Made by a program: the position numbers and the translations under genes. A stretch of 64,000 nucleotides of DNA from Tricharina praecox (lineage: Eukaryota). The notes beneath the pieces are model-generated. The model did not search any database, was not told the origin of the DNA, and saw only the letters and a list, made by a program, of their open reading frames with translations. Positions 11,809-62,182 of the stretch are shown in pieces. Numbering within the stretch: position 1 is the first letter of the stretch; the number at the start of each line of letters is the position of its first letter. The stretch is from NCBI RefSeq assembly GCF_024521635.1, contig NW_026250408.1:434001-498000 (forward strand), in the 5' to 3' direction.

Positions 11809-12842
11809 ATGGCCGCCTCCAAAAGCGAAAAGGTCCACCCCACCCCACCCCACTCCAACCCAGCCACGCACTCTAACCCGCCCAGTAGCCCAGCGTCCTC
11901 CGCTCCCTCCTCGCCGGCGCCACCGCCGGCGCAATCGAGATCAGCATAACGTACCCGTTCGAATTCGCCAAAACTCGCTCACAGCTCAACCGGCGTCTCG
12001 GCGCGGGGGAGAAGCTCCCATGGCCCAAATTCGGGAAAGAGTGGTACGCCGGCTGCACCACCTCGGTCGTGGGCAACAGTGTCAAGGCCGGAGTCCGCTT
12101 CCTGGCGTTCGATGCGTACAAGGAGATGCTGGTCGATGAGGACGGGCATCTGAGCGGTCCGCGTACGGTGCTGGCTGGGTTCGGGGCTGGTGTCACGGAG
12201 AGCGCACTCGCCGTCACCCCGTTCGAGAGTATCAAGACTCAGATGTGAGTTCTCTCTCTTTCTCTCTCGCTCTCTCCCAGGCGGGGGTTTGGGTGAACAC
12301 CCGTGGTAGGTAGGTAGGCTAGGCTGACGAAGAGCTTCAGCATCGACGACCGCAAGCGTGCGCAACCGCGGATGCGTGGCTTCCTGCACGGCTCCGCACT
12401 GATTTTCCGCGAAAAGGGGGTCGCCGGGTTCCTCCAGGGGTTTGTGCCCACCACCGCGCGCCAGGCCGCCAACTCCGCCGTCCGTTTCGGCTCCTACACG
12501 ACTCTGCGGCAGTTCGCGGCGGGGTACACTGCCCCAGGGGAGAAGCTCGGCGGCATGACTACCTTCGGAATCGGTGCTATCGCGGGATTGATCACTGTCT
12601 ACTGCACGCAGCCGTTGGATAGTGTGAAAACCCGCATGCAGAGCATTGAGGCTAAGCAGATGTATAAGAACACGCTGCATTGCGCGGTCAGGCTGTATAA
12701 GGAGGAGGGCGTGAGGGTGTTTTGGAGTGGGGCTACGCCGAGGCTGGCGAGGTTAATGGTGTCCGGCGGGTTGGTCTTTACGTTTTACGAGAAGGCTATT
12801 GAGTTCTTTGACCGCGTGGATCCAGGGAAGAAGTACATCTAG
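11809..12842 (+). CDS. CTP1: Mitochondrial citrate/tricarboxylate carrier (3 exons)
   Basis: Three carrier motifs (TYPFEFAKTR, TPFESIKTQ, TQPLDSVKTRMQ), plus GNSVKAGVRF, RQAANSAVRFGSY and GATPRLARL, typical of Ctp1. Confidence 0.9.
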
Positions 12843-18079: not shown

Positions 18080-21000
18080 GAATAACTAGGCTTAGGCTCA
18101 GATTGACGGGTTTCTTTTTTTGGTTTGTTTGCTGTTATTGCACTGAACTTGGAATTTGGGATATGGATCATGAATTATGGAATGTGGGATATGTACGGAA
18201 AGTGAAAATTGATTTTGTTTCCTTAACGATTGGGAATTTGGGAGTGCTGTGAAAGTGAAAGTGAAGATGACATGACCTGCCAAAACCGCTACGGACAGAC
18301 TCCGTGTATGTACGTACGGTAATGGGGTCCGGTATGTATATCATGACTATCCCGGATTACTCACTATTGCGGTCGAAATCCGGGGCTGAACTGGGGCGTG
18401 GGCATGTTGCGTGGAAGCCACAGCGCCTCAAGGTGTCTGTCTGGTTGGGGGCCGGTCGTGTATAAACCATATGATCGGGGGTTATAAATTAGGTATAAGA
18501 TACGAAATATGAAGGTTGGTGGGTTCCCTGATGATCGGGAGTGGAGATATCATGATTCATGGCCGGCAGCTTCCTCTGTTGAGAGCACGGGTCTCTATGT
18601 AGCCAAAATCTGCCATAGATCGGATCTGCTCTACATAGGAGGCAACGCACTGCAAGAAACCCCATACACAGTGTTCGGGGTATCTTTCCGGCAGTGGTTC
18701 AAACCTTTTGTCCACTGATTTTCTTGATTATGTACCTTACCTATGATCCTCTGCAGGCTTATATCCACTGAGTATTTCTACCGCATCTATCATCGGGTAC
18801 TGTTGATAACTTGATAATATGCGTCCTATTGCCTACCAATTCCGGTGTCACTTGTACATACTTTTCTCCGCCCTCTGTCCCTTTGCATTATCGCATACCT
18901 ACGCAACCTTCATGGCTTCTTACTTATGTAGCATTGTCCCTGGCTTCTCACCAGAATATAGGTACAGTACATAATAAGCCTCTTCAGGCCCCCAGCCCCA
19001 GCCCGATTCCCTTTACTATATGAGCAGTCTCCTTTCTCGTCTTTTGTCTTTCTCATCTTTCTCATCTTTCTCGTCTTTCCCGTAGATATCATTGCATCAC
19101 TCAAGTCAACTCAAGTACTTCTCTCTCCCAGTTTCAACTTTCAACAGGTTATGAGCCCGCGCTCGCCGCTCATAGGTGCATAACCTGTTGTTGATACCTA
19201 CTCTGTCTTTCTTGAGACGACACGTGCAGTCGACAGTGGTACTTATGGTTGTCCATTTTGAAATTAGTGCATCGATTGAACAGACTGCAAAATGGATAAC
19301 CATAAGCACCGCTGCCGACTGCACGCTTCGTTCAAGACTTCTGAAAATATCAACAGGTAACGAAGCTGAAGTTGTGGCGAGTGAGATACCATGAATACGC
19401 ATGCCGAACGTAGGTATTTGACCATGGGGAAGTGTTAGTTGTTAGAAAGTACGAATGAATTGCAAGAATCCGAGGCCTCGAGCGGGCATATGTACAAGAA
19501 GGCTATAAGCTGGCCAGTGCCCGCTGCCGTCGTCATAGCCAAGTAACCGCCTACCTATGCAACTACTACGCAACGAATGACTCAATAGGTATTGCAACAT
19601 TGGTTAATTAACCGCCATGCCTACCGGCGTGGAATATGAGAGGGTAACTAAGGCCGTGTTCAGTACTCGTGATCCATTGGTTAATTGAATTGAAAGGTTT
19701 GTTTTTCACGGCCTTCGTTGTCATGGCATGCAACAACTGGCTACATATACCTACCGCGATGGATTCACATACTGCCAGCACTATCTCCATGCCGACCTCG
19801 GAGAAGGCTAAGAACGGAACCCGCGAGGCGAGTCGAGGCGAGTCGAGGCGAAGCGTTGGCAACTTGGCATGTCTCGAACCGACGAGACGGCCACGGTTTC
19901 CAAACGTGAGAGCAACCGCTTCGAGAGGCGGCAGAGGGTTGTCTCGTTGTCTCGCGACGTCCTGCCCGCCTTTTCGAGAGGCAGCACGGGGGTGGGTGAA
20001 GGTGGCCAGCTTGCTGGCTGGTTTTCGAAGACGATGCTTTTGAGTCTTAACGGCAGCATGAGTAGAGGGGTGGGAAGTGGGGCTGCTTGATATCGATGTC
20101 GATATTCCTTATGGCCGTCCCGTGATTTTCCATCTTCGGGTTCCGGTTTTGGCACGGGCATTCACCACGAGTGTGTGTGTACATAGTAAAATCGGATCCA
20201 GAGGGCTCTCGAAGCACAACAGTAACAGAACATTCCCGATATCGATGGCCTGTACCGTAGTGGAGTATATGTAGCGTTTTTGACATTAGGATTCGGCGTA
20301 CGTATGATGAGCATAGGTGGGTAAATAATTGGGTACATATTAGAGTCGAGCTGGTGCACCCGAAGCCCAAATCACAGGAAACGTCCTCGATGTCCTCATG
20401 TATAGGTGGTACTTACCGTTTCCAGCCAAGCCAACTCAATTGCGATTGCGAGCTTTTAACAGGACATGCACAACGTAATTGCATGCAGCGAGTGAGCCGT
20501 GCCGCACCGCAGCGGGTCGTTCGGGACCAGTATGTAAGCATAGTACTTGCCTACATGTTGTGCATTCGCATTTCAACGTGGGGGTCGCCGATGTCGCACA
20601 CGGTGTCACTCGGCATCGGCATGTGAAAGGCAACAATAGCAGTTGGTTATCTATCGGGTTGATCCGTCTGTGTGTCGCTTCCGCTCGCGGTTTGCTCTGT
20701 CCCTCTGATTTGCGTTTCAGGGAGCGAGGCTGTGGGCCCCGAGAACTCGAGAACTCAAGAACATGCTCCAACTCATATGTAGCATGGCTGGGAAGGTTCG
20801 GCTCGCGCGCTGCGGGCGGTCAAAAGCGAATTCCGGTGACTAAAGAGGTGGGCGCTATGCCATTCGCAGAATGGCGAGCAAGAGGCGGGCCCTTTGCCCT
20901 TGTCCTTGTTTCTTTCCGTTCTGCTCCAGCAGACGTCTCAGCCTTGCCGCTCAAACGCTGGCCTGCTCCGTGTCCTGATCTTCATTCTCCCACGGCCAAC

Positions 21001-27908: not shown

Positions 27909-28275
27909 GGGCAGTTAGGGCAGTCGACTGTTAATGGATGCTTTTGCTTTGCGTTGGTGCTTGATGAACGGCGGTTGCATGAATGGTGAGAGCGGGCGGT
28001 GGGCATAGGTAATTTGAGTCCGTCTCCCTTATGGATAAGAGCTTTTCAGGAATCAGGAAGAGGATGTTATCGCTACATATGATCATTAATGCTAAATGCT
28101 TTTACTTGTGTGTCTCTGGTCTCCACGGTCTACCTAGAGCGGGTATGCGTGCGTGCCTGCGAGTGCAAGTGCAAGTGCAGATGGAGTGCCTTCGTCGATT
28201 GGCGCCGTATGTATGTACAGTACAAGTACCTATGTACGGACGTCCGATTTCTGGCAGTGGGATCATGGATGGACT

Positions 28276-29223
28276 CAGACCCTCCAACAGTTCGAACTGG
28301 GAACAAACCGGGTTTTCCGTACCCCCCAACTGCTGGGGGGTCGTGAACTGAACCAACTGGCAAACTGAACCAACTACATATCAGGTTTTGGACTGGGAAA
28401 ACTGCTTGGCCCATCAGTTCAGTTCAGTGAGGCTTAAACGTTTGGGCCAAACCCATCGCCACCACCAACCGACCGGATAACCGCCTACAAGGCTACAACC
28501 CGCCACCCAGTCACTACTATTTCCCCAGCAGCCAGTACATAGGACGCCGCCGGTTGACAAGCTCCAGGACTACCTATTGTTCATTGCCCGTCGATTCTCG
28601 AGAGGAATTTTTGAATTTGAAACAGTCCTGCTGCGAATATACCGCGATCGAATGGTGGCTGGAACCGCGCCGGCCAGCAACGACGTCAACTTTCCTAACC
28701 TCAGCCGAATGGCGATTGACATACTGTCTACCTATTCCAGCCATGTCGGCTACCTAAGGTTGAACGGCCGTTCTCCGAGTGCAAGATGATTCTTACTGAT
28801 CACCGATATTCCCTAAGTACATACCGAGAATGTTCAATCTCTGCAGAGTAGGTATCAAGAGGTTCAATCGCCGTACTCCCATCATGGGTAAGTACATAGC
28901 ATCAGAGTAGTAATTCATAGCTAGTACTGTATGTACCCATTCTGTATCGCTTTTTCCGTGAGCATAGGAAACCTACCTACGGTATCTCGCCCACTTTGGC
29001 TGGGCTGGCTGAACTGAACTGGCAGTTCTGCCAGTTTTCCCCGGGAACAACAGCCAGACTTAGATAGATACCTAAACCAACTGGGGAGTTAGAACTGACA
29101 GCCTCTGTTCTATTCCCAGCTGAACCGCGAACAAAATCAACCAGAACTGGACTGTTTAAACCAGTGTTCCAGTGTTCCCATTTCAATTTTCAACCGGCTA
29201 ACTGTTGGAACTGGGAGGGTCTA
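28276..29223 (+). mobile_element. Internally deleted hAT transposon retaining a frameshifted C-terminal dimerisation domain
   Basis: Ends are CAGACCCTCCAACAGTT and AACTGTTGGA(ACTGGG)AGGGTCTA, with many subterminal AACTG/CAGTT repeats. The repaired translation of ~28640-28870 reads AIEWWLEP...FPNLSRMAIDILSIPAMSAKVERPFSECKMILTDHRYSLSTENVQSLQSIK, the hAT dimerisation motif. No 8-bp TSD is visible. Confidence 0.88.
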
Positions 29224-31039
29224 CCTACCTACAAGTGCAAATGTGCAACTGTGCGACTGTGCAAGTGCAGTGGCTACATCGATTGGTTTGATTTGGTGCC
29301 GTACGGTATGTATTGTACAAGTAGAGTATTGCCCGGGCGTCAGATTGCTGACGGTAGAATGGAGTACATACCCAAGTACTTGGACCGTTGGACGTGCAGC
29401 GTGGTACATACGGGTACGGATACGGGCGAGGAGCAGTGAAGTCACGAGTGTGCGATGGTATGTATGTATGGTGATGGTATGTAAGTATGCGGTTCCATAC
29501 CTGTGCTGATGTTTGAAGGTGGAGTATAACAGACACCCAAGGAACACGGATTTGTTCTGATTCCGTATTTAGGCGACCCTGTGCATGAACTTGAATGATA
29601 ACTCGAATAAAAGCGGTAGAGACACCGCATTGATTGTAAACAGCTACGGTACTCAAATCTCCAGTGCTGCCTCCACGCCGGCGAGAGGGGCATCTGCCGA
29701 ACGGTTGCAGAGCATAGCAGTGAGAGACGTCTCCGGGGCGACGCCAGTACTGCCTCCGGAACGAGGCCATTTGCCTCCACAGTAGCGAGAGAGGTCCTTC
29801 GAGACGAAACCATCGCCGCCACGGATACTGCTACACCACCATTGCCGGGATTCTACGCTATCTTCACCGCCCCGTTCGCCTGTTGGGATTCATACCGGTG
29901 TGGTGGAGGGTCCAGCGTTGGGGAGTCCACCGTTGATAGCCAGCACCAGCGGTGGGGGGTCGAGTTGTGCCGTTCGCTGTTATAGCCGTCGGCTTCTGCT
30001 CCCCTCATCCTCTCTTCTTCTTCTTCTTCTTCTTCTTCTTTCATCTCGTCATCATCACCACCATCATCCAGGTAGACGATCAACCCTACCATCTTCTCTT
30101 TTTCTCTGTGTGCGCTTTCTTCCAAAGATCCCGCCTCCGGCCTGGAGTAGTGTTGGCCCACGAACCGCTCGCAAAACCACATCCGCTTCCTCCCGCCAAT
30201 AGAAATCCTCTATCACTTAGTTCCTCCAATACTTCCTCCTCTCGCTGACAGCTCATCATCACTTCCTTCTCTCACCTACAGCTCAGCCACAACCCGCCGC
30301 TGATACTGCACTGTGAATCCCCGCCTCCGCCCCCCTCTCTACTACTCCTAACCATGCCGGCACCATCGCAGATACTGTCTCCCCCTACTACTCCTCTCCC
30401 TCCTGGTCCCTGGTCCCATATGGGGGCGACATCACTTCCTCCTTTCGCTGACAGCTCTTCAATCGCTCCACAAGCCGCCGCAGATACTCTCTCTCTCCAC
30501 CAACTGCACCTTTCCCTGCTTCTATTCCTGCTTCTATTCATGCTTCTATTCTTGCTTCTAGTCCTGCTCTTCAATCTGCAGGCCCCGCAGCTGATACTGT
30601 CTCTCCCCTAGATACTGCTTCTCGCCGACCATCTCACAGCACTGGCTGCACTGTGAAAACTGTCTCCCTAATAGTATGTGCTGATCCTAACCCAGCTGGA
30701 CTACCAATATCTGTTCCTTCCTACTAGTACTCGGCCGCTAGACCCGCCGCGGATAACGTCTCCTCCTACTTCTTTTTCTACCAAGCGAGCAGATAAGTCT
30801 CTGGACCCACCAACGTCGATGCTCCCAACCAACCACATCCGCATACTTCTGCTAACAGGAATCCGCCATCAATTCGTCATCTCGTTGACAGTTCTTTCTC
30901 TCGCAGATATCTCCTCCTCCTCTCGCTGACAGCTCCTTCTCTCACAAACAGCTCATCCGTCACTTCCTTCTCTTGTGGGTTGAGCCTCTTGTAATAAGTA
31001 GAAATTCATTAGAAGATGAATTCATATATAAAGTCACTT

Positions 31040-34211: not shown

Positions 34212-37200
34212 ATGGACGACGAGGTAATCGTCATTCCCTCTTCACCCCCCGTGTCCGACGAGGTAATCGCCATTTCCTCTTCTCCGCCGGTGCCCGACCA
34301 GACCAATTCGCCCGAAGAAGCGCCGGACGAGCAATGCAAGTCTTCAGCGGCCGACGACGCTCCTCCGGCGGACACGGCCTCTCCCATCGACAGTGCGTAC
34401 GCAACCAAGGCGCCCGGAACAGCTAGGAACAGTTCCGAAGTCGCCGAAGTCCCCGAAGAGTCAATGGTTGTAGACGGCGCCGAAGACGAAGCCATGGTCA
34501 TTCCCGCGGTGACGTCGAAAAAGCGGAAGAGAGACGACGTCAAGGATGTAGAGGCAGAGGCGGAGGCGGAGACTGAGCCTCGGGCGAAAGGCAGAAGCTT
34601 TAGCCATATCCTGCCGCCTGGCAGTGTAAATCCGATGTCGGTGTATGGGCAGAGGCCGGCGCCGAAGAAGCCGGAGCAACTAATCGTGTCGATGCTTCTT
34701 GTAAGTCTTTGCGCTGCGAGATGGCTTGTGGGTGCTGTGTGCTAACCTTGAATAGGCGCAAGAGAGCAAGAACGGCGTCGACAACGACGATAAAACCTAC
34801 TATGAGTACCGCCTGGAAGATTTTAGCTTCTACACCGGTCGCAGCCATATCAAGCCGAAGGAGGGGGCGAGGGATCCGTATCCTTTCAAATACCCGTGGG
34901 AGATGATCAGACTATCGGCAATGAACATCGTGCCGAACATCGAGTATCTCTATGCCGATGGTTTCCTTGTTGGCGAAGATGGTGTGCGACACTACTTTGA
35001 ACGAATGAAGGTTGACGTGTTGTCCGTTAGCTACCGCGACCCTTTCAAGCCACGTGACATACACGTTCAGTCCTCAATGTGTTCGAATAGCAGAAGTGGT
35101 GACACGAGGCTTCGGGATGTCTGGTACAGGTTAGGAACGCCCTCCAAGGAGTACAAGCCATACTACGAGCCATTTCAATGGTTGGCGCAGTTCGGCCTTC
35201 ATTTCTTCGCATTCGTGGAGTCGCAGATGAGGAAGGGCGACGTCTTACTGCGCGACTTCCGTAATTTCGGCGACTGGATGGAGAGGCAGTTCGATAAGCG
35301 GGGTGACAAGGTCGAGGTGGAGACGTTCTTCTTCGGCTGGTGGAATGCGGTGGGGAGTCGTCGCGACTTCCGGAATGACATCACGACCCACAAAGACTGG
35401 CTTTGGAACCAAGTCTACGCTGTCCACGCCTACCGCCGCTTCGCTGATCTCACGCTTTGGAAGGAGACCAGGACGCTGAATGCCATCGCGCCGGCTTACC
35501 CAGGTCGGCACGAGAACCTCACCGTCGTAACACCGTATGTCTATGAGATTTTCAAGGACATGTACGGACCCCATCTGAAGAAAGTTGTACCAGTCCCGGA
35601 CGTGCCTAAGAAGCTCGCCGGCGTCCTTGTGCATAAGAAGCAGAAGGCGAAGACCAACGAGGTCTACGTCCCACGCGTGGGAGACTGCGTGCAGGTCGCC
35701 GTCGAAGAGAAGGGGACATGGTCCAAGAAGGAGAAAACGAAGAGGAGGAAGGGGGTGAAGGGTGTGGTGGTGGACGACGACGAAAAGGAAGAAGAGGAGT
35801 GGTTTGGGTATGTTACGAAGCTGGAAGGCCGGCAAATTAAAATTGTCTGGCTCTACCGGCCTAAGGACACGATTCTGGATGGGGGCCACTATCCGTACAA
35901 GAACGAGGTATGTTTCCTTTTACACTTTGTTTTCATTGATCCAGACATGAAGCGGTCTCGGCTTGCTGCGCGTCTTCGGCTCGGCGTCAGCTCGAGCCTG
36001 CTCGGTTCGTCGGGTCTTCAACTCGAATGTGTGAGCCGAGTCGGCGCGACTCGGCCAAGACCTTGGGTTGAGCTCGTTCTCGAGTCCACAAAGAATGTAC
36101 CCTAGACCGCTCAGCTCACCGGCGGCTGCGCTCTAACCGACTCTGCTCATGTCCACTCCATCCGTTTGTTTACATCTCGCTGAGACTGAATCTAGCTCTT
36201 CTTCTCGGACCATTGCAATTGCGATGAGGATTCAGATCCGCTGTACGCGAAGAACATCGTCCGCAAGATCTCTGTGGTGTTCAATCCGAAAACCACGGAG
36301 GAAATGGAGTCAGCCGAGTACTTCATTCGGCAGAAGGCGCAGGCGACCGATTGCGCCTTCATTTCGCTTTCGAAGAAGGATCTCGAACTCGGCAACTGCC
36401 AATGCACGGACCCTGACGATGACGACACGATACTTCCCAACCTCTATCACAAGCTCAAGAAGCAGTTTCCTGTAGGATCAACAGTGCTTTACACTCCCGA
36501 AGGCAAGGACGTCAAGTTGCTCGAGCCCGGAGTGGTTTTCGCTCTTGACGACTCGACAATGGGTATCACACTCAGGAAATTGGTCCGCGCGCCGGGGGTG
36601 GTTCCGGGGGCGAAACCCAACCAGCTGTTGTGGACCCAGGAAACTGCCTACTTGCATTGCGGCATCATCGGTAACATCAAGCGTAGATGTTACATCGCTG
36701 TTCTCCGGGACGACGCCAGACCCGAGACACCTTACGATCGCGATGGGATTGGTGAGCTCTTTTACATTTCTGGGGCCCTGGACTCAGAAGGCAATACCAT
36801 CCCTGTGCCCGAGCTTGGTCAGGACGAGTTTCGAGAAGGGTGGAGTCTCACGGATGAGCTCCCTAAAGATAAGCCCGTCCTCAGAGGTATGGACCTGTTC
36901 TGTGGAGGAGGCAATTTCGGACGAGGTCTAGAGGAAGGAGGTGTTGTGCAGATGAAGTGGGCTGTTGATTTCGACAAGAACCCCCTTCACTCGTACAGAG
37001 CCAACCTGAACAATCTGGACGACACGAAACTTTATCTTGGTAGCATCAACAACTACCTTGAGGATGCCATCTGTGGACGATACTCCGAAAAGACAGGTAT
37101 CCCCGGGAAAGACGAGGTGGACTTCATCAGCGCTGGATCCCCCTGCCAAGGGTTCTCACTGGCGAACAACTGCCGGACCAGCTTCGGCGCTCAACGCAAG

Positions 37201-38979
37201 CAGAGTCTGGTGTGTTCCCTAGCCACTGCTATCGATGTGTACCGACCCACGTACGCCATTCTGGAAAACGTGCACGGCATCGCGACTTCACGAATCCGGA
37301 ATGGAAAGCAAGAGAACACGTATACGGAGATGCTCTGTGCGATCGTCGGCATGGGCTACCAGATCCAATCCTTCTTTTGCGACGCCTGGTCCCACGGGAA
37401 CCCCCAGAGCAGGACTCGGCTGATCCTCGCCATCTCCAAGACCGGATACAAGGCCCTTGACCGGCCACCCCGGAGTCACCAGCACAGCCCCAACGCGAAG
37501 TCCCAGGCTTTGTACTCGGCGCCGAACGGGGCACGGTTCGGACGCCGCGAGATCGGCGAGCTGACGCCGTTTCCGTATTTGACTACGGAGGTCGCCTGGG
37601 CACACCTGCCCAATATCGGAAACGGACACGTTGGCCTATCGATTCGCTACCCGGACCACACCTGTGCCGGCGCCAACGACACAACAATAAGATTGCTGAT
37701 GTCCCATGTGCCTCGGTTTATGGCAAACAATTCGTGGCGGGTAGCGATCGACAGTGGTCGTCTCCACCCAGTGCTCCAAACATTCAACCAGGTCGGTGAG
37801 AAGGGGACGGCCGTCAGCAGGACATATAGCAGAGTCTTTAGAAGTGGCCTTTGCCGCACGATCACTACGACGCCGACTCCTCAGTGCTCGAGAACCGGTC
37901 GCTGGATGCATTCGGACGAGAACCGTCTTCTAACGATCCAGGAAGCTAGGATCGCTCAGGGCTATCCGGAAGACGACGTGCTCGCCGGTGCTCCCTCCAA
38001 CAAGCTCCATGTCATAGGAAACTCAGTGGCTCGAGGAGTGTCACTAGCTCTAGGAATCGCTGTTAGAGAAGCCTACCTAGAGAGTTTTATGGATGAGGTG
38101 CATGGTGCGATAAACAATGCGACGGACTGCGACAAAACCGATGGTGTTCTAGAGTTAGAGTTGGCCATCGGAGCCGTCGAACCTGTCGATGTCGACGCCG
38201 CTGCCGCTGCCGAGCAGGCCCTCCAGGCCGATGCACAGAATGATATGGATAAGTGTGTACTTCCATCCATCAGTTCGGACACGGATCCTATGGACCTAGA
38301 CCCTGACGACGCCGTCGCCGAACACACCCAGCCCGCCGAAAATGAGGACCAAGTGCCTGCTGACGACGCCGTCGCCGAAGATATCCAGCCCGCCGAAAAT
38401 GAGGAGCAGCTGCCTGCCGACGACGCCACCGCCGGAGACGTCCAGCACGCCGAAAACGAGGATCAGATTGTTGCCGACGAAGTCAACGGTCATAATGCTG
38501 CTCCTGGCGATGACAGCACCATTCTTTCCGCCGAAAACGAGGAACAGCAGCCGGCCGACGAAGTCAACGGTCATAATTCTGTCTCTCGCGACGACAGCAC
38601 CATGCCTGCCGAGGAAGCTAATGATCATAATTCTGTCTCTGGAGATGGCAGTACCTTATTTGTTGACGAAGCCAACGGTCATACTACCGCCTCTGGCGAC
38701 GACAACACCATGCTTACCAACGACGCCCCCACCAACCACGTCCAGCCCTCTGAAAATTCGGACCAACTACCTACCTACGAAGCCATCCCCCATACTGCCC
38801 CCTCTGCCTCTGGCGACGACAGCATCCTTTCCCTGCGCAACGACGCAGACGAGAGCATGTGGGCCGGCGAGCCGTCGGAGGACACCTTTTTCGGGCGCAA
38901 GGAGTACGGTGGCGGCGATGATGACGAGTTGGATCTTCTCGATGCCGACGGTGAAGATGATGAGGAATTCTCGATCTGA
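34212..38979 (+). CDS. dim-2: DIM-2-type DNA (cytosine-5) methyltransferase with BAH domains (introns 34701-34755 and 35908-36195)
   Basis: BAH region (WFGYV...VWLYRPKDT...YPYKNE|LFFSDHCNC), motif I LRGMDLFCGGGNFGRGLEEGG, catalytic SAGSPCQGFS, ILENV, PQSRTRL, RLLTIQEARIAQGYP, IGNSVAR. Exon phases are consistent. Confidence 0.93.
35942..36155. mobile_element. Degenerate MITE-like insertion in dim-2 intron 2
   Basis: Imperfect inverted ends: CAGACATGAAGCGGTCTCGG versus the reverse complement of the right end, TGGACATGAGCAGAGTCGG. The interior is rich in CTCGG/CCGAG/CTCGA. The intron is 288 bp, whereas most introns here are ~50-80 bp. No clear TSD. Confidence 0.5.
38305..38830 (+). repeat. Coding tandem repeats in the acidic DIM-2 C-terminal tail
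   Basis: Three 57-bp units (DDAVAE..QPAENE.Q.PA) at 38305-38475, followed by several DE.NGH....GDDST-like units. Confidence 0.9.
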
Positions 38980-40207
38980 TCTGATCTGAGTGATGACGAG
39001 ATGAGATGAGACGAGATGAGACGGGGATATGTGAATGTATGTTGTATGAATACGTCTGTTAATTTTTGAGTTTCTTGTAAGGTTTTGCTGTTCTGGTTTT
39101 TTTCTTCTTTTCTGAGGGGATTTCTTTCAGCGTTTTTACGGGGGATCTACTTCGGTTATTCTGGTCTTTTTTTTTGTTTGGTTTTTTTTGACTGGAGTAC
39201 CGCCTGTATTGAAGAGTTCCAGTGTTTCGAGTACCCACCTGGTCCGGTTGCGTGTTGCGAGTGGTTTTTCTGTGTAGATGTTTGATACCATACCCTCTTA
39301 GCTTCTGTTTCTTGGCTTCTGTTTCTTAGCTTTTGTTTTCATTTCTTCATTTCTTCTGTTCTTTTACTTCTTTTTCTTCGATTCTTCAGCTGTACATCTT
39401 CAGGCTAGAGTATTCACCAAGTATTTACGTCGGCGACAATGTTGAAACTTGAATGGAGCGGTGGGATTTCTGGTCACTTTACGGCTCTATCATGTCATCT
39501 GTGTACAATTTCGGGATGCGTCAGTGGGTGTGTAGACGTGGGGTAAACAAGCCACAAGCTACAAGCTAAAGAACAGCCCCATTAGTCCTCTGTTTTACCT
39601 TTACTTTTACTTTTACTTTTAGGGGTATCCCACGCCCGCAACGTGCGCGTGGGCATCCAAACGACCATATGCTTCCTATGTAACTCCCGGCCTGTCCACC
39701 GTCCGGTAATCCCCCGGCGGGCCCGAAACTTATGGTCATGGACTCCCGAGGTGGAAGGTGCTCAACTCAGTCAGCTACATACCAGGTAGATACTCGTAGA
39801 TACTCGTAGGTGCCTACCTAGATATAAGTATGTGCCTAGGTACCGGGTGTGAGAATCTCGAAACACTCTACCTACCTACCTAGTATGTACCGGTACAGGC
39901 CTTGCTGTCAGGAATTCTATATACACGCCTTTTGGCTATCCTTCTAGCTATCGATACGGAGATATGTGCGGATAGGATTGTGGTGGAACTCGGGAGAACT
40001 GTACACTGCATAGAGGAGGAGGGCTGCGTCATGGATATCACTCAACTCTAGTGCTTCGAATCGTAGTGGCATAGCGGTGTTTTCCGCAGCGATATACAGC
40101 CATCATTTCGGCCACTATTTTCCAACAAGTTTCCTCCACCGTCCACGAATTATCTGTCCATTTCTCTGTCTGCAGCCATGCCAACAACTTTCATCCCCCT
40201 TCCCCCA

Positions 40208-41007
40208 CTAAGAAAACTCCTTCCGATCCGTCAACGGAACATACATAACACCATGACTCTTCTTTTTTGTGACCTTTCCCTCTTCATCCTTATCCACCTC
40301 CCAAACCCACTGCCCCGCAGTGCCTCCCCCCTCGCCCTCGCCCCCATCCCCATCACAAACAGGAATAAACAACCTCCCGCCCCTCCCCAGCTGATTGACC
40401 AGCGTGTCCACAACGCCCCACCCATCCGCCGCAGCGCCGACATGAATAGCATCGTACGGGGCCTCGGGCGCATAGCCCTGGCGGCCGTCGGCGGTCACGG
40501 CCTGGATCCGCCCGTCCGACAGCATTGCGGCGGTTGCGGGGGAGCGCCGCAGGTTTGAGGTTGCCAAAGAGGTTAGTTGCGGGATGTGCTCGATGCCGAT
40601 TACTTTGCCGCCCGGGGGCTGGGGGAGGGGGGGGGGTCAGTGGAGGAGTGAGAGAGGGATGGGGAAAGTACGAGAAGATGTCCGATCACAGCAAGAAGAT
40701 ACCCGCTGCCGCAGCCGACGTCGAGGACCCTCACTCCCCTGCCCTCCTTTTCCCCCACCTTCCCCCTTCTCTCGCCAGTTATGTAAGGCAACAGCGCCTC
40801 CAGCGCATAAACATGCATATGCGGCGCGGAGATAGTAGCGTCGTATCCGATGCGCTGCGGGGCGTCGGCGTAGGGCGCGTGCGGACAGAAGTGTGCGCGG
40901 TCGGTGGCGAGCATGGCCGCTGCCAGCGCGCGCGACGTCAGCAGCCCGTTGCGAGACAGGTTGTTGATTAGTTCGCTGTTTGTGTGTCCGGTGGAACGCC
41001 AGGACAT
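40208..41007 (-). CDS. PCM1: Protein-L-isoaspartate O-methyltransferase (one intron, ~40619-40671)
   Basis: MSWRSTGHTNSELINNL, IGYDATISAPHMH, RVLDVGCGSGYL, KVIGIEHIPQL, DGRQGYAPEAPYDAIHVGAAA, GVMYVPLTD. Confidence 0.93.
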
Positions 41008-41621
41008 TTTTGCTGTGGTTATTGTGGTTGTGAAAATGGGAGCTGGGGGGTTGCTGGTGGCGAGAGCTGTCGAGATGTGGAATGTGGAATGTGGGGAAGC
41101 TGTCAAATGTATATACCTATCGTACATACATGACAGACAGACGTCATGCATATGCACGAGTGCGTCCCCAGTCCACTAGGATTGAGGGCGGGGGTGCATG
41201 TGATTGATGGTGGAGTTCAGTGCACACGTTCGGTCTCACTCGGCATGTTCGTGAATACGGTAAATAGCCAGCCCAAAAGATTAGGTACCTTGATATGCAA
41301 CACTCACTGCTCTTGCTCCTGCGCCCGCCCGCCAGGGCCTACCAGCGAGTATTGTTGTTTCTATGGCAAAAGGTCAGGCAAAGCATGTAGACAAAAAGGA
41401 ACGCAAAGAAGAAGAAGAGAGTACACATGAAAGGGAAGAAACACCATGCCAGTAATCCAAATACAAAGCGAAAGGAGAAAAAAAAGGAAAAAGGAAAGAA
41501 AGAAAAGAAAGAAAAGAAAGCCCGTAAGAGAAAAGAATCGGAAGCGAAAGGAAAAATATGTCTACATGCAGGTAGACGATGATGATGACGATGACGACGA
41601 CGATGATACTAACAACGATGC

Positions 41622-42909
41622 TTATACCGCCCTCTCGGGCTGCTCATTCTCCGCGACGACCGCGACACCAAGGCCACGATCGGGACTCGCCAGCACCAAC
41701 TGCTCCATACGGCGAGCTCTCAAGAAGTCACCGACCGCACGGATCAGAATGAACCAACCGACGACCATCAGCACATAACTCAGCCACTCATTCCGCCCCA
41801 AGCTTGTATCTGCCCCCGCCGGATCCGTCGCCGAGTCCGTCGCTCCCTGGAAATTGTAGGCGTTCGGGTCCCCCGGCGAGGTTTCGGGCGGCGGAGAGCC
41901 AGTGGTCGCATCGCCATCGTCCGAACGTCCGCGCATCATGAAGCCAAACTGAACTAGTGTGATTCCGAGCCCAGCGCGGGATCCGTTCTTGGCTGCGTGC
42001 GTCGTGTGCAGGAGGTAGGTGAGGAGGAAACCGACGAGCTGGAACGACATGGAGACTGTTTGTTTGTTACTCTCGATTAGCTATCCATTTCCCCATACTC
42101 TCCCCGTAGAAACTCCTCGGTTCGGGCCCTTACTCAAACAATTCCAGACGAACGCGAAAACCGAGCCGACCGGTAGCCCATCGATGAACACCTCGTCGCT
42201 GGCCATTCCAGGGGTGAGGATCGTCGTCTCCCAGTAAGGAGGTGTAGCGTCAGCCGCAGCCTGCTCGTACGTCTATCACCAGCAGCATCAACATCGTCAG
42301 CCCCGGCCGCTCGCGCACCCCATCTCATCTCATAGAAAACCCCTCATACCGGCGGATGTTCCTCCAACTTCTCACCGACGGTCGGCTTCGCGCTCAAATT
42401 CGCAAAAACACCATCGGTCTGGCCCCCACCGACCCTCCTCCCGGACGGCGCCGCAACATTATACACCGGCCTCATTGTGTTCGTCGCCGCGGTCGCCGCG
42501 GACGACGGCACGAGCGGCTGCGACTCCTGAAAATTCGCATTACTGGCGGAGCGGTTATGGTTTCTCATGTCGTGGTCGGCGTCATCGTCCTCGTCGTCGC
42601 TGGGGGCGTCGAACGAGTCGGCCAGATCCGGATTGTGCTGCGCGATGGCGGGCGAGACGGGGCGCGAGTAGGCGGGCGGAGAGCTCATGATCGATGCTGC
42701 TGGCGGTGAGGAGGTGATGGGTGCGCTCGTGTTTGTGGGAGGAGCTATCACGCCGTGCACGTCGAGATCCTCGTCGTCGGCATGGTCGATCTGTGGGTGG
42801 AAAATGAAATGCGTGCGTCAGCGTCTTCGGTTCGGCAGGCTGGAAGCTCCGACGCAGCTCTCCGACGACGACGACCAATGTCACTCACCCTCTCGTAGCG
42901 GTGGCTCAT
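41622..42909 (-). CDS. BSD2: Metal homeostasis / Rsp5 adaptor Bsd2 (NDFIP family), multi-exon
   Basis: DGVFANLSAKP, HPP|TYEQAAADATPPYWETTI (PY-type motifs), GLPVGSVFAFVWN, SFQLVGFLLTYLLHTTHAAKNGSRAGLGITL. Confidence 0.9.
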
Positions 42910-43671
42910 ACCGAGCGATCGAAGGTTTATTGTTTTTGTTTTGGATTTTCTGTTGACGAGAGGAAAGGCGAAATAAGACCGGGGCGCAGAAGGATTACGG
43001 AAAAAAGAGAAAGGAAGAAAACAAAAAGGTGGGTGTGTCGTGTCGACGGTATCTGGTTGGAAACAGGAGAAGTTGAGGGGCAAAGTCAGGGCGAAGGTGA
43101 TGTCGCGCTTAGCTCAGCGGGTTTGGGGGGAAGACAGCCATTTACCCTTTGGGCGCTGCGCCACAACACCAAGACTCAGGCACGGGTCAATAAGCCGGCC
43201 GGAAACCTTGAAGGACGCGATTCGAGTGAACGCTTGGAATTCATGAGCACTCGGCGACGAAGGAGCAAGAACACCAGAGAATCCCACGCAACAAAAAGAG
43301 AATATAAATAAGAAGTATATCCCACACTGTCTGTCCGACTGACTGGTGTGTCGTCATCTAAATACCAGAAAGAGCCAACACACACACACACACACACACA
43401 CAAGATCCCCTAGAAAGCACCGTAGGAAAACGAAATGAACAGAATTGAAGGAGCAGCAGCAGCCGTTGACACTTATAGAAAGAACCCCTCCCAACACAGT
43501 CAAGAAATCTCGGAACGCCATTCGGAAAAAAAGAAAAGGAAAAGGAAAAGGGACGCAAGGGAAAAGCAACTCTACAAGTACATGTGGCCCGATCAAGAGA
43601 TCCCACGAAGCACGGGTCCACCGACTGTGCTTCGGAAGCCGCAGCAAGCAATGGCCGAAAGGGATGCTCTC

Positions 43672-45273
43672 CTAATGGGGATGAACATCTTTGGACTGTG
43701 CAACAGCAAGGGCATACCTCTCTCGTTCCTCCTTTTCCTTCTCCAGCTTTTCCTTCTCCTTCTTGGTGATCCTCGGCTTACGCGCGGTAGTCGCGGGAGC
43801 TCGAGTCGTCGCAGTACCGCCGCCGCGGCCACCACGGCCGCGACCTCTACCTCTCTTGACGGTACCATCGGCCCTGAAGCCCAAGTTAGTATGAGTAGCA
43901 TAAAAAAGAAAAGAAAAAGGCATGCGGTGCGCCAGCAACATACCTCTCGATCAGAGGCTTCTCTCCCTCGGGAACCAACGGGCCGCTGTACACGAAAAAG
44001 CCATCCTTGGAAGAAGCAGCCTGCTCCTCCCACATCATCTCCGAGTCGTCAATGAAGGGATCCTCCTTGTCGTAGATGTCCTGATATCTCCTCTTTTTGC
44101 GCTGCTTGGAGCTCTCACTGGCAGCTTCTCCGGTTCCTCCCATCTCCACGTTCGACTCAGACTCGGACCCATCCACCGCCATTTCATCTCCACTGTCCAT
44201 CATCATTTTCGCCTTGGCAAGCCTCGGGTTCAATGCCGCCCATCCGTACTTCTCCTCCGCCAATTTGGCAAAGTCGATGTACCTATTCGTTTCTCCCTCG
44301 AGTGGGAAATTTAGGTAGATGTTCGGTACACGAAACTCGTCATCCTGGTTTCCTCCACCCATGCCCGGCAGAGCGTTTCCAAGCAGTCCACCCCCCGATC
44401 CCGCCTGACGAGCCGGCTTCGGAGAAGGAGCCTTCGAACTGTTGGCCGTGGAAGTATTATTATTCGTAGTAGTATTAGTCGTAGTGGCCGCCTTCAACAT
44501 GGGCGAATTTTCGGTCCCTTCCTTCTTGAGCCTCTTGTTGTTGTTGGTACTGCTAGTACTACTATTGTTGCCGTTCGGATCCTCGACGAAATTAGATGTG
44601 GGCTGGGCACCAGACGTCCTAGGCTTCTTGGCCGGCGGGTCAGCATTGATTAAGGAAGCAATTGACGGCGAGGCCGAAGCGCGATGTCCGAATTTCGTCG
44701 AGCCTGCAACGGCGGCGGAGGTGGGAGTGCTATTGTTGCCGGCCGAGGAGCGAGGGATCGGATCAAACGGAGGTTGCAGATGCCCCGATCTGGGAGTGTG
44801 ATTTCCCAAATTTCTATTTTCCGGAGCGCCACCTTCGGAGTCCGAATCAGTGAGTTCGATCACTTCCGCATGGCGAGACGGTAATGCGCGTTGTTGCTGT
44901 TGTTGCTGTAGTAGTTGTTGTTGTGGGGATGAAGCTTCTGTGTTGCGATATCTTTCGTTAGCATCATGTAGCGCAGTCGCGCGAGCGTAGTTTGTGTAGC
45001 GGGAAGGGACGGGGTTGAGTTGGGGTGGGTTGAGTTGGGTTGGGGTGGGATGGGGGTGGAGGGAAGGGTAAACTAAACACCATGAGAAAGATTGTGGTGA
45101 CGCTGGAACGGTGAGGCGTGGCTGGTATTGCTACCACCACCCCCATCGTTGCGCGTCAGGAGTGCGTGGTTGGGACTTCCAATACCGCCATGGACGGCAG
45201 GGGTGTTTGGGGAGCTGGCGTTTGGGTGGTGACGGTGCTTCGCGGACGGGCTACCAAACGAAGCCGAAGACAT
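43672..45273 (-). CDS. HPC2: HIR complex subunit Hpc2 (HUN/HRD domain); 3' end uncertain
   Basis: YIDFAKLAEEKYGWAALNPRLA and YDKEDPFIDDSEMMWEEQAASSKDGFFVYSGPL, followed by KRGRGRGRGG. Confidence 0.85.
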
Positions 45274-46696
45274 CACGGCGTCGGCGTGAGGAAAAGAAAA
45301 AGAAAGAAAGGGAAGGAAGGAAGAAGAAAGAAAGCGTGATAGCCTCTCGTCGGACGGGAGAGTGCTGTTCTCGCTACTCTGCCAGTCTGCACCGGAGATC
45401 AAGCTGCGTGACGAACGAGCGCAACTTCAACTCTGGCGTCGAGCGTGGAGTGTGGAGCGTGGAGCGTGACAGCAAACAATCAGGAGGGAGACGAGGATCT
45501 TGGGAGGGAGCAAAGACGAAGAGTCAAAAGGACCCCGAGAACCGTAGAGACGGTGGCGGTAGTTGGGGATAGGTTGAAGGGCAGAGTGTGGAGGCAGTGG
45601 GGGGACGGGGGGTTGAATATGGGGGGATCGTGATGATGAAGAGTGTAGTTTTCTGGGGGGTGAGGGAGGAAGGAGGAAGAGAGGGAGAGAGGGCGAGATG
45701 GAAGGGGACTTTTCGGTCAAGGGATACGGTGGTGGGTTTTCTTTTAATTTTTAAAGACAAGCAACACAGTTGAGAACTTTCGGCCTCAGCAGCTTTGGAA
45801 CGGGGGGTGGGAAATTGAAAAGGACGGGCACTGGACGGTGGGCGGTGGGCGGTGGACGGTGGCAGGCGAGTCTTGGGAGAGGGAGGCCGGAACTGGGGGG
45901 AGCCAGCACGCAGCTTGCTTTGCTCTCTGCTCATGCTTTGCTTCTTACCTAGGCGGCGGCGGACGATTGATGGGTTAAGGGTGGTGGTGGAAGGTAGTAT
46001 GGGGTGCGGTCAGGTAGGCGGGATCGGAGGAACGGGGATTGTGATATTGCAGAGTGATCCGGTGGTGGGGGAGAGGGGGGTGGGGGATGCGAAGAGGGAG
46101 GCTCGAAGATCAAGCGGAAGGTCCCCAATGAGAGTGTGAAGACCCATTGAAGCTGGAGAACAGCTTCGTGACATGGAGGAATAGCTCATGGAGGGCTGTG
46201 GGGAGGAGGTGGAAAGCAGAGACGACGCCGAGACGCAGGCTGGCCAGCAGATGTGGCGCTGGATATGTCCAAAGGCCTGGGCTTTTCCTCTGTCGGTGGC
46301 TGCAAGACATCATCATCACACGCATCGCTTCTGGAACACGCTGAATGGCCGGTGGATGGATTTTCTCTTCTCCGTCACCGTGGTCGATGTGCGTTCGGCC
46401 TCTGGGCGAGGAGGAAGGGGACGAACAAACGAAGATGAGCTCTGCGATGGTTCACGGTACCTAGAGTACCTACTGGGTGAGTCAGGCCTAAACGAGGCTG
46501 CCGCGGGCAGTGGTAGAGCGAAACAAGGCTGAAACGCGGCATCCAGCATGGAGTGGGGGGAACATGCCAGAGCAGAGGAGAGCATGGTAGAGTAGAGTAG
46601 TGCCTGAGAGCCAAGACCGTGCGAATCCATTGGACGCGCGCACTGCTCGACTCCAGCAAGTCGCCGAAAGCGTCCCCACGGATTGGGGTCCATACG

Positions 46697-46778
46697 TCTC
46701 ATGCCCAGTCTGGGGGTCGGCGTGGTTTCTCGTTTCTCATGCCCAGTCTGGGGGTCGGCGTGGTTTCTCGTTTCTCAT
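46697..46778. repeat. Perfect 38-bp tandem duplication
   Basis: TCTCATGCCCAGTCTGGGGGTCGGCGTGGTTTCTCGTT x2, plus TCTCAT. Confidence 0.95.
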
Positions 46779-48854
46779 TTCTCAAGGCTGAGGGGGTGTG
46801 ATCCTCATGCCCGTCACCAACTTCCCTCCTGCACATCGGCAAGGTTTGTCTGTCGTCAACGAGGCTCCGGCCCATCACATCAGCCAGCAACCCTGTCCGG
46901 CCGTTTAGTGGTCCGTGCGTCGTCGTCCCCCCTTCCCGCCAAGTCTCTTCTGCCGATCCTTGTGCGACCACCTCCCACCTCCCCCCCCCCTCCCCTAAAC
47001 ATTGCCAACCGCTGGCTGCACGGGCTTTTCTAGAACAAAAATCTAAACCCCCCCCCACACACACGCAGGTCGCAGGTCGCAGCTTGAGTTCGATCGATAA
47101 TGCTTTCCCCGCACTCGTCTACTTACCGTACCCCACACTCGCAGAATCTGGTGCCATCGAATCCTCACGTTCTCTATACGCACATGCATACGGTCGACGG
47201 TGACGATGATAGGCGCGCTGGTGGCTGGCGGTTGGTGTCATGTGGTGCCGGTCGTGTGGGCGGGGTTGCCTGGGTCTACCTATCCGGCCTTAGGCAGGTA
47301 CCTGCTTACTTACATACCTGTAGGTGCGCATGGATGTGCCCTCTCTTCGTGATCGAGCCTCGTCCAGCTACATATATATGCAGCATTCCTCCAGGTGCTT
47401 CTGCACAGCCAGCGAGTAGTTGAGGCTGCCTTGCTAGATAGGTGCGGAAACAGGCAACTACCCACCTACCCCGGAACAGCGTGTCCGTGTCGGCCCTCCC
47501 CCCCCTCCCTTCATCGGCTTCGGCCTTGTCTCAACGCCGCTCGCCGTGCATCTACCATCCACGACCATCAGGCTCCGGCTGGATTCAAGCCCGCTGGAAA
47601 CAGCGCCGCCGCCAGCGGCCAGCCTGAGGAACTGCGCTGGCACTACCGCGCGCCGAGTGATACTATGTGCATCGATGGCCTCCAGACTGCGGGGCGCCTT
47701 GCTGTCATCGCCTCATCGCCCATATTGCCTGCCTGCCGGTCGTTGCTGTCTGGTAAATACGTGTTACAGGCGGCATAGGAACGCGGTGACAGGCGCAAAA
47801 GAGGCTTTATCACAAACATGGCGAACCTGTAGGTATCGCAGATCAGTGCCAGCAATACACAACCGCTCTCGATCTTCAGTGTTCAAAGCCCAGACCAGGC
47901 CAAGCAAGCCCTCTAACCCTCCAGCCTTCAGCCTCCAGAAGTCACCCTGCGTATTCGAGCGTGCGCCAAAGCCGAAGCCGAAGTACATGAAACCGACTGC
48001 TGTCGTCCTCGCCGTCTCGACTCTCGAGGATGAGGAGAGGTATGCATATATAGAAACCATCTATCCGCCGAGCTGTAAGTATCCCATTCTATCCCATCTC
48101 ATACCGCACTGGTCCGATGGTGAGTGGTGCTTGGTTTCGTCCGATCATGTGAATACCTTCCCGTATGTCCGTCCGTTTCCCCGGTTTTCTCGTCGTTCCA
48201 CCCTCCGGCATCTGTCGCTCCTGAGTACCGTGTTGCTCGTGCGAGGGTGAAGGAAGGAAGGAAGGAAAGTGAGGAAGGGAAGTGGGTGCAAGTCGCAAGT
48301 CTCCAAAGCCGTAAGTCGCAAGTCCACGGCTCAGAGGGCGGTTCAGAGGCGTGGCAATCCTATTGATACCTACAGGAACTCAATCCCTGATCAGACTTGA
48401 TACACTTCGGCTGCGGCAACGTTACAGTCAATGCAGCCAGGTGTGGATACGACGAGTATCTCCCTAGAGTAGTATAACCTTCGTTCAGTGCGTGGGAATT
48501 CGGGGAGTTACTGGCGCAGATGTAATAGTAGCAACGGAGCACCGCCGGCTTCATGCAAGGAGATCATAGAATATCAACGGCATGAGAGATAGTGAAAAGT
48601 CTTTGCCTGCTCTTTACCGGGTCCAATGTCCATTACGCTTTCAACAGTTGGTAATCGAGTGAAGGGTAGTTACATCCAAAGCAGCAAACGAAGCCAAACA
48701 AAAAACGCCTTTCTCCAAACGAGTGCAAACGACAAACAACTTTTGAAGGAACCCGTAGGTAGCAGCGGACAGACAGACAGACGGACGGACATGCTAGCAG
48801 AAAACGAGGGCCATTCCTTCATTTTCATTTTCCCTAGCCGGACGGTAATCATTC

Positions 48855-60585: not shown

Positions 60586-60685
60586 GGATTAGTTGGTTAC
60601 CCCCGAAGTTATTGCCGTAGTTACCGCTGTAGTTAAGCCGGAAGTTGCGCCGTAGTTACCGCCGTAGTTACCGCCGTAGGGGCGC
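60586..60685. repeat. Degenerate 12-bp tandem repeat (GCCGTAGTTACC)
   Basis: GTAGTTACCGCC and variants repeated about 6-7 times. Confidence 0.75.
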
Positions 60686-62182
60686 CGGAAGCTGAATGGA
60701 CACGTCGGGATCATTTTAAATCACTCGGGTGTCACGTGCTTCTGCGAACCGTGGATTGTGGACCGTGGATTGAGTTGTACTAAACGCACGTGTCACAGTG
60801 TAGATACACACTCGAATCGTATTAGTCGTATGTAGAGGATCCCTAGATACCTGCCCGCCGCAGGACAGAGTGACAAGCTACAACCAAGTTCTCGTACCCA
60901 CCTTCACCGCTCATCCAGCAGTCGACGTCCCTGCCCGCAGAGCGGAGTACCGTGGTACTCTATATAGGGCGGACATGAGGCGCAACGCTACCTATAACTA
61001 GCGGTTAAGCTAGATCTCGCAACGCTGAGGCCGACCCTGCTGGGCGTATCCAACCGGCGGGCATTGGATCCGGAGGCGGGCTCATTGGACGAAACCAGCC
61101 AGCAGATACGTACCCATTGCTTTTTCTCGTGTCCTGTGCGGTTGTGGCTTCTCTACCGTACTCTACCTACTGTAGAGCAGAGCAGTTGGTTTCTCTAGGG
61201 ACTGTGGTCTTGTACGGTTGCACCGTCCAGCCGCGGTGGGCTTGGTAAGAATCAAGATATGTAGGTAGGGACGGCTTGATACGAGAGGTCGAATTACTCT
61301 ATCTCCACCACCACAACCACCACCAACTCGTTATGTATGAGAGTAGGTACACGATGTTGCCAAGCTGTCGAACCGACTTCAAAGCGTGCATCTCATCATC
61401 TATGCCAAGAAAATCCCAGACATTGTTGGACGCCCACGCCCACAAACTCTAAGTTCTAACCACGGGCCGGAAGATTTCTTTCGTGTTGGCCTCCTCCTCC
61501 TCTTCTTCTTCCTTTCTTCTTCTTCTTTGCCATTTAGTAGTCGAGGCTCGAGCTGCCAATAATAGGCACCTCTGCGAAATTCAAATTCCGAGCAAAACAC
61601 GAGGTGGCATGCATAAACGAGAAACACGGTAATTATCCTCCTCCCTCGTTAAAAGAAACCGCCGAGAACTTTCTTTTCTTTTCTTTTGCGTCCACCGCAC
61701 TCGGTTCGTGCGCGGTGGTGGGGGTTATACCCGTTTCCGACACTCCGGAACAGCCGTGGGGACTCGCGAGCCCGTTGTTGAGGTTTGAGTTGACACGCAC
61801 TGGCGAGAACTGCTCTTCCCCCCGAGATGAAACTCCACCGAGACCGGAGGCATGGACTCGGAAACTTGGAAACCCGTAGAGCTGCTTGGGTCCCCGGGGG
61901 GATGTTTCGCAGCGGCGTGGCGTCTCAGGATTTGGATTTGGATCCGACAACTCGAAAACTTCCATGTATGTACCTACCGTATATCCAAACACCGGGGAAA
62001 AGGGTCGTGGTCCGATAACCAAGCAACCAAGCAACTGCCTACCCAGATACAAAGTTACCGCCCCCACCACAAACGCAGGGCTCGCGTGAGGGTAGATTAC
62101 TTTCCGTGGAAACAGAGACAGAGGCGTTTCTCTCCGATGAAGATGAAGGTGCGGTCCGTGCATTGTACAATTACCGGGCATA

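Follow-up and report, generated by a model that had tools for sequence, protein, structure and literature searches.

The genome sampled comprises 38.4 Mb in 104 contigs, and the window analyzed here is a stretch of 64,000 nucleotides (nt) within one of them. Its genes contain introns and probably come from a filamentous ascomycete, and domain matches confirm a C5 DNA methyltransferase, a mitochondrial carrier and an L24e-like protein. The C5 cytosine methyltransferase gene is large (34208-38979; PF00145, DUF7893). The window also holds the relic of a hAT element of which the genome contains 26 or more copies, one subfamily having an internal insert of about 200 bp. Pieces of another dispersed low-complexity repeat, common to the loci L021, L022, L054 and L077, lie at 30013-30973, and short degenerate tandem arrays of TA-containing 4-6-nt and 12-nt units are found at 26876-26935, 27736-27770 and 60591-60694.

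The features of interest are chains in which TA dinucleotides alternate with short spacers. The original prediction had singled out seven such stretches, and all seven are present as it described them. Two had been placed approximately: the chain cited at about 28205-28237 spans exactly 28208-28236, and the intron chain cited at about 12305-12317 spans 12307-12321, directly upstream of a branch-site-like motif in the carrier-gene intron.

Table 1. TA-spacer-TA chains of the window and the hAT relic, with the state of the same sites in other hAT copies
Feature	Position	Strand	Consensus site in hAT	Remarks
TA-GG-TA-GG-TA-GGC-TA	12307..12321	.		in intron (about 12245-12340) of mitochondrial carrier gene (PF00153)
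TA-TG-TA-CG-TA-CGG-TA	18307..18321	.		mixed chain
Mixed chain	28208..28236	.		immediately left of hAT relic
Decayed non-autonomous hAT element	28276..29223	+		terminal repeats; 8-bp target duplications in several paralogs; PF05699 remnant
TA-CC-TA	28571..28576	+	282	single TA in most paralogs, CA or GG in other copies
TA-CC-TA	28729..28734	+	404	inside hAT frame; GG, TG or GA in other copies
TA-CC-TA	28751..28756	+	422	majority has TG (TG to TA, then insertion)
TA-CA-TA	28818..28823	+	485	single TA in paralogs, CG or TCA in others
TA-CC-TA-CGG-TA	28974..28984	+		single TA in paralogs: two stacked unlike insertions
TA-CC-TA-CC-TA	29222..29231	+		right tip of hAT relic; paralogs end TG
Three CC units, then G, TG, CCGG	39869..39895	.		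chain
TA-GAG-TA-GAG-TA	46588..46599	.		
TA-CCG-TA-CTC-TA-CC-TA-CTG-TA	61154..61174	.		mixed chain; single copy in genome

Frequency and arrangement of the words

We counted TA-spacer-TA words against an order-2 Markov background after splitting the window into 40,330 nt of non-coding and 23,670 nt of genic DNA; genic intervals were drawn by hand, and introns were counted as genic. In non-coding DNA, TA-CC/GG-TA occurred 70 times against 11.5 expected, TA-CA/TG-TA 72 times against 15.7, TA-CTC/GAG-TA 24 times against 3.6 and TA-CCG/CGG-TA 16 times against 4.0, with 9, 6, 1 and 1 occurrences, respectively, in genic DNA. The enrichment is genome-wide. In a non-random sample of 664 kb, made up of the window and 60 stretches of 10 kb spaced over ten contigs, six spacer classes stood 3-7 times over the Markov expectation: CA/TG (876 observed, 206 expected), CC/GG (681, 167), AC/GT (268, 74), CTC/GAG (318, 45), CCG/CGG (204, 55) and TCA/TGA (129, 43). 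GA/TC (339, 159), CT/AG (189, 110) and CTA/TAG (86, 31) words were also in excess; CAG/CTG (61, 49) and CG (113, 91) were near background. The count therefore bears out, in window and sample alike, the enrichment in non-coding DNA that had been judged by eye. The proposed vocabulary was right for CC/GG, CA/TG, CTC/GAG and CCG/CGG but not for CAG/CTG and CG, which hardly rise above background, and it overlooked AC/GT, TCA/TGA, CTA/TAG and GA/TC.

When all words of the form XY-NN-XY were ranked, the top three were TA-flanked, and TA-CTC-TA came first among all XY-NNN-XY words. In the same 664 kb, TA recurred 2.04-fold at +4 and 1.23-fold at +5; none of eight other dinucleotides tested exceeded 1.18 at +4. 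The excess words total 2,200, or 3.3 per kb, from which we estimate by extrapolation some 127,000 words in the genome, making up 1.4% of its DNA and 8% of its TA dinucleotides, some slippage products included.

The chains are mostly mixed, as had been proposed: 532 of 700 adjacent pairs of core words in the 664 kb were heterotypic. It had further been suggested that each new TA serves as a target, so that the process feeds itself. If a new TA is as good as an old one, core words should follow core words as often as they occur at neighboring TAs. The two frequencies are 0.168 and 0.160 (TAs 9-60 nt away), so self-feeding occurs at the plain local rate. For the bulk of the words the suggestion thus holds at that rate and not above it, a clear preference for existing words being seen only with 3-nt spacers and with the ends of MITEs, described below. 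Extra stacking of 2-nt words was looked for and did not appear: one followed another at 0.129, compared with 0.166 at nearby TAs.

Homotypic adjacent pairs numbered 168, against 111 under independence, and this excess we attribute to slippage. Perfect unit duplication fits 189 of the 681 CC words and 245 of the 876 CA words. Of the 29 tetranucleotide arrays that contain TA, 25 are ACAT (15) or ACCT (10), in support of the suggestion that such words could seed (TAGG)n/(TACA)n microsatellites; among pentanucleotide arrays, ACTCT ranks second in frequency. AGCC, ATCC, AAGC and AAGG arrays outnumber those of ACAT and ACCT.

The reverse-complement pairing of the spacers had been taken as a sign of left and right element ends. 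In word counts this pairing proves nothing, because it is automatic on double-stranded DNA, and only paralogs compared at the same site can count. As for order within chains, spacers starting with C are rarely followed by spacers ending in G (CC-GG 2, CC-TG 4, CA-GG 4), and the reverse order is commoner (GG-CA 15, TG-CC 15).

Insertions at single TAs in repeats and related loci

The hAT relic provides a neutral recorder of insertions. Thirty loci were returned, four that overlapped another were dropped, and the remaining 26 copies were aligned, with their majority sequence as the reference. Against it the copies show 240 insertions and 136 deletions, and an anchoring filter retains 165 of the former and 83 of the latter. 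The anchored insertions have size peaks at 4 nt (59) and 5 nt (22), whereas the anchored deletions are most often a single nucleotide long (21). A single shared TA-TC-TA polymorphism accounts for ten of the 4-nt "deletions". Among the 81 insertions of 4-5 nt, 63 are non-tandem, and 32 of these 63 turn a TA into TA-spacer-TA, with duplication of the TA and a net gain at that site. The next-best dinucleotide accounts for 5 of the 63, and simulated nulls give shares of 0.9% for random insertion and 4.8% for tandem duplication followed by one substitution. With nine exact tandem copies added, insertions of the TA form number 41; they are rare at 5 nt (5 of 22).

Collapsing shared events leaves 32 distinct combinations of site and spacer. 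Their spectrum (CC/GG 12, CA/TG 9, CG 2, CTC/GAG 2, TCA/TGA 2, singles 5) agrees with that of the genome-wide words. In 29 of the 32 the inserted bases, two or three and fixed, are unlike both slippage templates and so are not copied from the flanks. Moreover, one and the same TA can receive different spacers: site 404 bears CC, GG, TG or GA depending on the copy, site 282 bears CC, CA or GG, and another TA bears GG, TG, GT or TA. Both CC and its reverse complement GG occur at consensus sites 282, 404 and 567, as left- and right-end forms at the same site. Fold-back of the flank, as in a hAT-type hairpin with P nucleotides, would fit GA at site 404, but CC, GG and TG at that site cannot all be obtained in this way. 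Eight of the 41 TA-form insertions lie where the majority sequence has CA or TG, which implies that substitution supplies new TA targets. In total there are 33 events at 692 aligned TA sites, or 0.05 per TA, with shared events counted per copy, and the same copies carry substitutions at 8.1% of sites.

Other repeats gave the same picture. With hAT sequence masked, they yielded 525 distinct indels, which are unpolarized; 21 of 56 non-tandem 4-nt indels had the TA form, compared with at most three for any other dinucleotide, and the spacers of the TA-form indels included CC/GG 11 times and CA/TG 5 times. At 5 nt, 1 of 19 non-tandem indels (1 of 24 5-nt events) had this form. In hAT copies and other repeats alike, then, the words start from a single TA, which an insertion duplicates while adding a non-templated spacer, as the original prediction required. 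Reads from four public runs aligned to 28001-48000 comprised long pieces near-identical to the window (X1) and spliced matches (X5), and the read-derived indels there, among the matches listed, came mostly from paralogs of the hAT relic.

Comparison of orthologous sequence, in which stepwise gains of this kind had been anticipated, gave a divided answer. Among 80 metagenome loci, L182-L186 are five near relatives from another fungus, 96.6-98.6% identical, and they do segregate TA-form indels: 13 of 19 rows of non-tandem 4-5-nt indels, or 9 of 12 after repeated placements were removed by hand. Their spacers are AGG/CCT (3), GAA/TTC (2), CAG/CTG (2), TG (1) and CT (1), and one site has three alleles, namely a single TA, CAG and TTC. 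In other close pairs the TA form was seen in 0 of 13 4-5-nt indels (L171/L174), 0 of 2 (L245/L248), 0 of 1 (the L220 group) and 0 of 2 (L169 and the window). The last is a comparison with an orthologous contig that is 76% identical over 8.8 kb and offers just those two anchored 4-5-nt indels; 0 of 27 words in the window and 0 of 28 in L169 are identical between the two, many of them lying in poorly aligned DNA. Across 32 metagenome loci of at least 9 kb, the excess of CC, CA and CTC words was mostly weak or absent, so the intensity observed in this genome is not general. The exceptions were a clear excess of CA and CC in L180 and L173, and of CCG in L174. The process is not unique to this fungus; its vocabulary and intensity are lineage-specific.

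Resident elements inserted at TA

DDE/DDD transposase domains of the relevant superfamily are present, as judged from domain matches: at least four to PF03184 (DDE_1) and at least four to PF13358 (DDE_3), together with Tc3- and Tc5-type helix-turn-helix matches (PF01498, PF03221). Only L001 carries its transposase gene (DDE_1) within TA-flanked terminal repeats, which end CTG; this 3-kb pogo-type element (L001:390-3443, PF03184) has a GAG-ended element nested in it, along with a CAG-ended MITE of 100 bp. L002, L003, L005, L006 and L007 have long open frames for pogo-like or Tc1-like transposases with no terminal repeats nearby, and they may be domesticated.

TA-flanked MITEs fall into family A, which ends CAG (30 ends), family B, which ends CTG (36 ends), and family D, which ends GAG (8 ends), and there are further single elements with ends GAG, CAG and, at L008, CTA. 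These MITEs often sit on the words described above: a second TA lies at -4 from the target TA in 19 of 30 cases for A, 18 of 36 for B and 3 of 8 for D, against a background of 11-12.5%. Indeed, at L113:1372-1652 (G000:C12 near 597,000), an A and a B element occupy the two TAs of a single TA-CC-TA (L113/L147), in agreement with the earlier proposal that different TA-inserting families visit the same scar. When every word was scored from both ends, words with 3-nt spacers shared this flank bias (CTC 0.25, CCG 0.23, TCA 0.23 and CAG 0.21, vs 0.11), and words with 2-nt spacers hardly did (CC 0.12, CA 0.14 and AC 0.10, vs 0.11). Since the flank bias of families A and B is missing from CC and CA words, these families are not the makers of the bulk; for the same reason family A was rejected as the source of CA/TG words. 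Because the bias is carried by the 3-nt words and hardly by the 2-nt words, the donors appear to fall into two classes, one that prefers existing scars and leaves 3 nt and another that is unselective, leaves 2 nt and lies behind the bulk.

The original prediction also held that the spacers should match the terminal bases of resident elements, and the match obtained is partial. The class leaving 3 nt could be matched to resident ends for GAG/CTC, CAG/CTG and CTA/TAG, and the ends CAG, CTG, GAG and CTA together fit the spacers CA/TG, CT/AG, CAG/CTG, GA/TC, CTC/GAG and CTA/TAG. The scan for terminal repeats, which covered about 1.1 Mb (about 3% of the genome), found no element ending CC/GG, AC/GT or TCA/TGA, and a search for a CGG-ended family gave one CGG-tipped end in a single copy. 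The most numerous MITE families (A and B) end CAG/CTG, although CAG/CTG spacers are barely enriched. Fot1-like elements end AC, and Tc2 ends CCG.

In another fungus, L193 carries a 526-bp TA-flanked element with CCCC ends that is missing from L196-L198, where the site is near-empty; such ends therefore exist. Two long-palindromic TA-flanked MITEs with CCCC ends, both absent from the near-identical L196-L198, lie at L193:9092-9621 and 16310-16833. The CCCC-ended element had no match in the Tricharina praecox genome, and the accessible portions of five papers (PMC7325037, PMC2836289, PMC3227409, PMC13728883, PMC3660474) contain no end sequences that would settle CC/GG. At the site of a B element in L073, other copies bear GG/CC and not CTG. 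A further element, at L112:1013-2553, has GGG-type ends and a probable TAA/TTA target; we take it to resemble PIF/Harbinger.

Origin of the words

Tc1/mariner elements insert at TA and duplicate it, and repair by end joining after their departure leaves a footprint between the TAs (PMC2874221); footprints of 2-4 bp are described (PMC7913693), and the typical somatic scar of Tc1 is +4 (PMC13148408), according to the available parts of these papers. We consider it probable (about 0.8) that the words are footprints accumulated through the excision of TA-inserting transposons of the IS630-Tc1-mariner group, including Tc1-like, pogo/Fot1-like and mariner-like elements and MITEs. An element would insert at a TA, duplicating it, and on departure would be cut at both ends, 2 or 3 bases into the element. 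End joining would then retain the 2-3 bases of one end between the TAs, giving +4 (TA-xx-TA) or +5 (TA-xxx-TA) in either orientation. The second TA of the scar would be targeted about as often as its neighbors, and more often by families that prefer a TA four bases out, so that mixed chains would grow; slippage might then extend some of them into ACAT, ACCT and ACTCT arrays. By this account the chain at 61154-61174, which has no paralog to polarize the site, would consist of four stacked scars grown from one ancestral TA, and that at 39869-39895 is probably a scar seed lengthened by slippage. Excision as the maker of the insertions, the assignment of families to spacers and the scale of the process are what we infer from these data. 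The words behave as Tc1/mariner footprints in every feature that could be tested, although their membership of that class is provisional, since they match resident ends in part and none of the loci was seen to be occupied in one copy and scarred with the same element's end in another.

The main alternative, though an unlikely one, is that a host or domesticated nuclease or repair process, for example a DDE enzyme or an end-joining polymerase, makes a 2-nt stagger at TA and adds a stereotyped 2-3 nt, no element ever having been present. It would explain why there are orders of magnitude more scars than visible elements and why donors of CC/GG, AC/GT and TCA/TGA did not appear in the 1.1 Mb scanned, and several of the transposase-like genes without terminal repeats do look domesticated. 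However, the spacers form several discrete 2- and 3-nt classes with unlike flank preferences, the vocabulary differs in another fungus (L182-L186) and it partly equals the ends of resident TA elements. One enzyme is not easily the source of so varied a vocabulary, and the literature searched gave no such process.

Replication slippage of TA-containing 4-5-nt units, blurred by later point mutation, is very improbable as an explanation of the whole. It has in its favor the exact tandem copies among the hAT insertions, the words that fit perfect unit duplication, the homotypic excess and the fact that 16 of the 32 distinct hAT events are one base off a slippage template. Nevertheless, the share of TA-form insertions among the non-tandem ones is far from the 4.8% that duplication plus one substitution would give, a single TA can carry unlike spacers and no other dinucleotide does likewise. 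Arrays of AGCC and ATCC are commoner than those of ACAT and ACCT, yet their dinucleotides show no +4 peak. Pure slippage was accordingly rejected, 32 of the 41 TA-form insertions not being copies of the adjacent unit: as sole cause it is largely refuted by the hAT indels, and it is better regarded as a secondary amplifier.

We give little credence to the idea that selection maintains the words as protein-binding or regulatory sites. Their restriction to non-coding DNA would suit such sites, but they include private insertions that lie inside dead repeats and disrupt a transposase frame, and on this ground the reading was rejected; the lack of words shared with L169 points the same way, weakly, given the poor alignment. 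Least credible of all is the creation of TA-rich words through substitution by RIP or methylation-driven deamination, for which one might cite the C5 DNA methyltransferase gene and the insertions at majority CA or TG; the events, though, are insertions, the non-coding DNA of the window is depleted in TpA (0.78) where an excess would be expected, and C-to-T rates in the hAT copies (CpG 0.080, CpA 0.058, CpC 0.045, CpT 0.043) show no dominance of CpA, so RIP was rejected as the cause. Decay in the genome's repeats is mild and CpG-biased, and they bear no RIP signature.

Taken as excision footprints, the words resemble the +4 scars of Tc1 and the 2-3-nt scars of Sleeping Beauty and ZB in their duplicated TA, two or three fixed bases, gains of +4 or +5 and use of either orientation (PMC2874221, PMC7913693, PMC13148408). 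Those scars, in the parts of the sources available, belong to known active elements at marked sites, whereas the ones described here are natural and genome-wide, at about 3 per kb and in at least nine spacer classes, for several of which no donor was found. In intron 4 of the Triticeae beta-amylase gene, Stowaway elements have repeatedly inserted at and left one TA (PMC1925063), and there too distinct footprints share a site and elements lie in or beside an older footprint. As far as the accessible text goes, that case concerns a single plant locus; here the footprints are the dominant signature of short words and 4-nt indels in a fungal genome. A genome-wide survey in rice likewise read DNA-transposon excisions comparatively as a source of variation, but called them from polymorphic elements and, in the part available, reports mostly messy excisions with deletions and fillers, 8 of 94 being perfect (PMC4423477); the scars here are uniform and can be counted without the element. 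Footprints themselves are thus known, and what is new is their scale, about 3 per kb. The literature searched, mostly without subscription journals and supplements, held no report of footprints dominating the word or indel spectrum of a fungal genome.

In Neurospora crassa, no tetranucleotide repeats are commoner than (TAGG)n and (ACCT)n, which are mostly non-genic (PMC2257937). They are homopolymers of the CC/GG scar unit and may be linked to footprints, an origin not given in the available part of that paper. More broadly, and tentatively, it is a real possibility that the commonest short insertion in this genome, and variably in other filamentous fungi, is a transposon scar; that each TA is targeted at about half the per-site substitution rate and 8% of TAs were made in this way; that the spacers are a lineage-specific fossil record of families with no remaining copy (or, for CC/GG, the work of an undescribed TA-scarring enzyme); and that this is how (TAGG)n/(ACCT)n and (ACAT)n microsatellites are born in ascomycetes.

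Copy number says little about the movement of cut-and-paste elements, because they leave. A uniform, countable scar supplies a number for that movement, here 0.05 scars per TA compared with 0.08 substitutions per site. By extrapolation there are about 127,000 scars and, at most, a few hundred evident elements, so that the genome appears to preserve an extensive record of earlier transposon traffic though few such elements remain. One practical warning is that scar words will resemble regulatory motifs in motif scans. Overall, these data would give a class of fungal microsatellites a concrete origin, and historical transposition rates and extinct families would become measurable from short-word and indel spectra alone.
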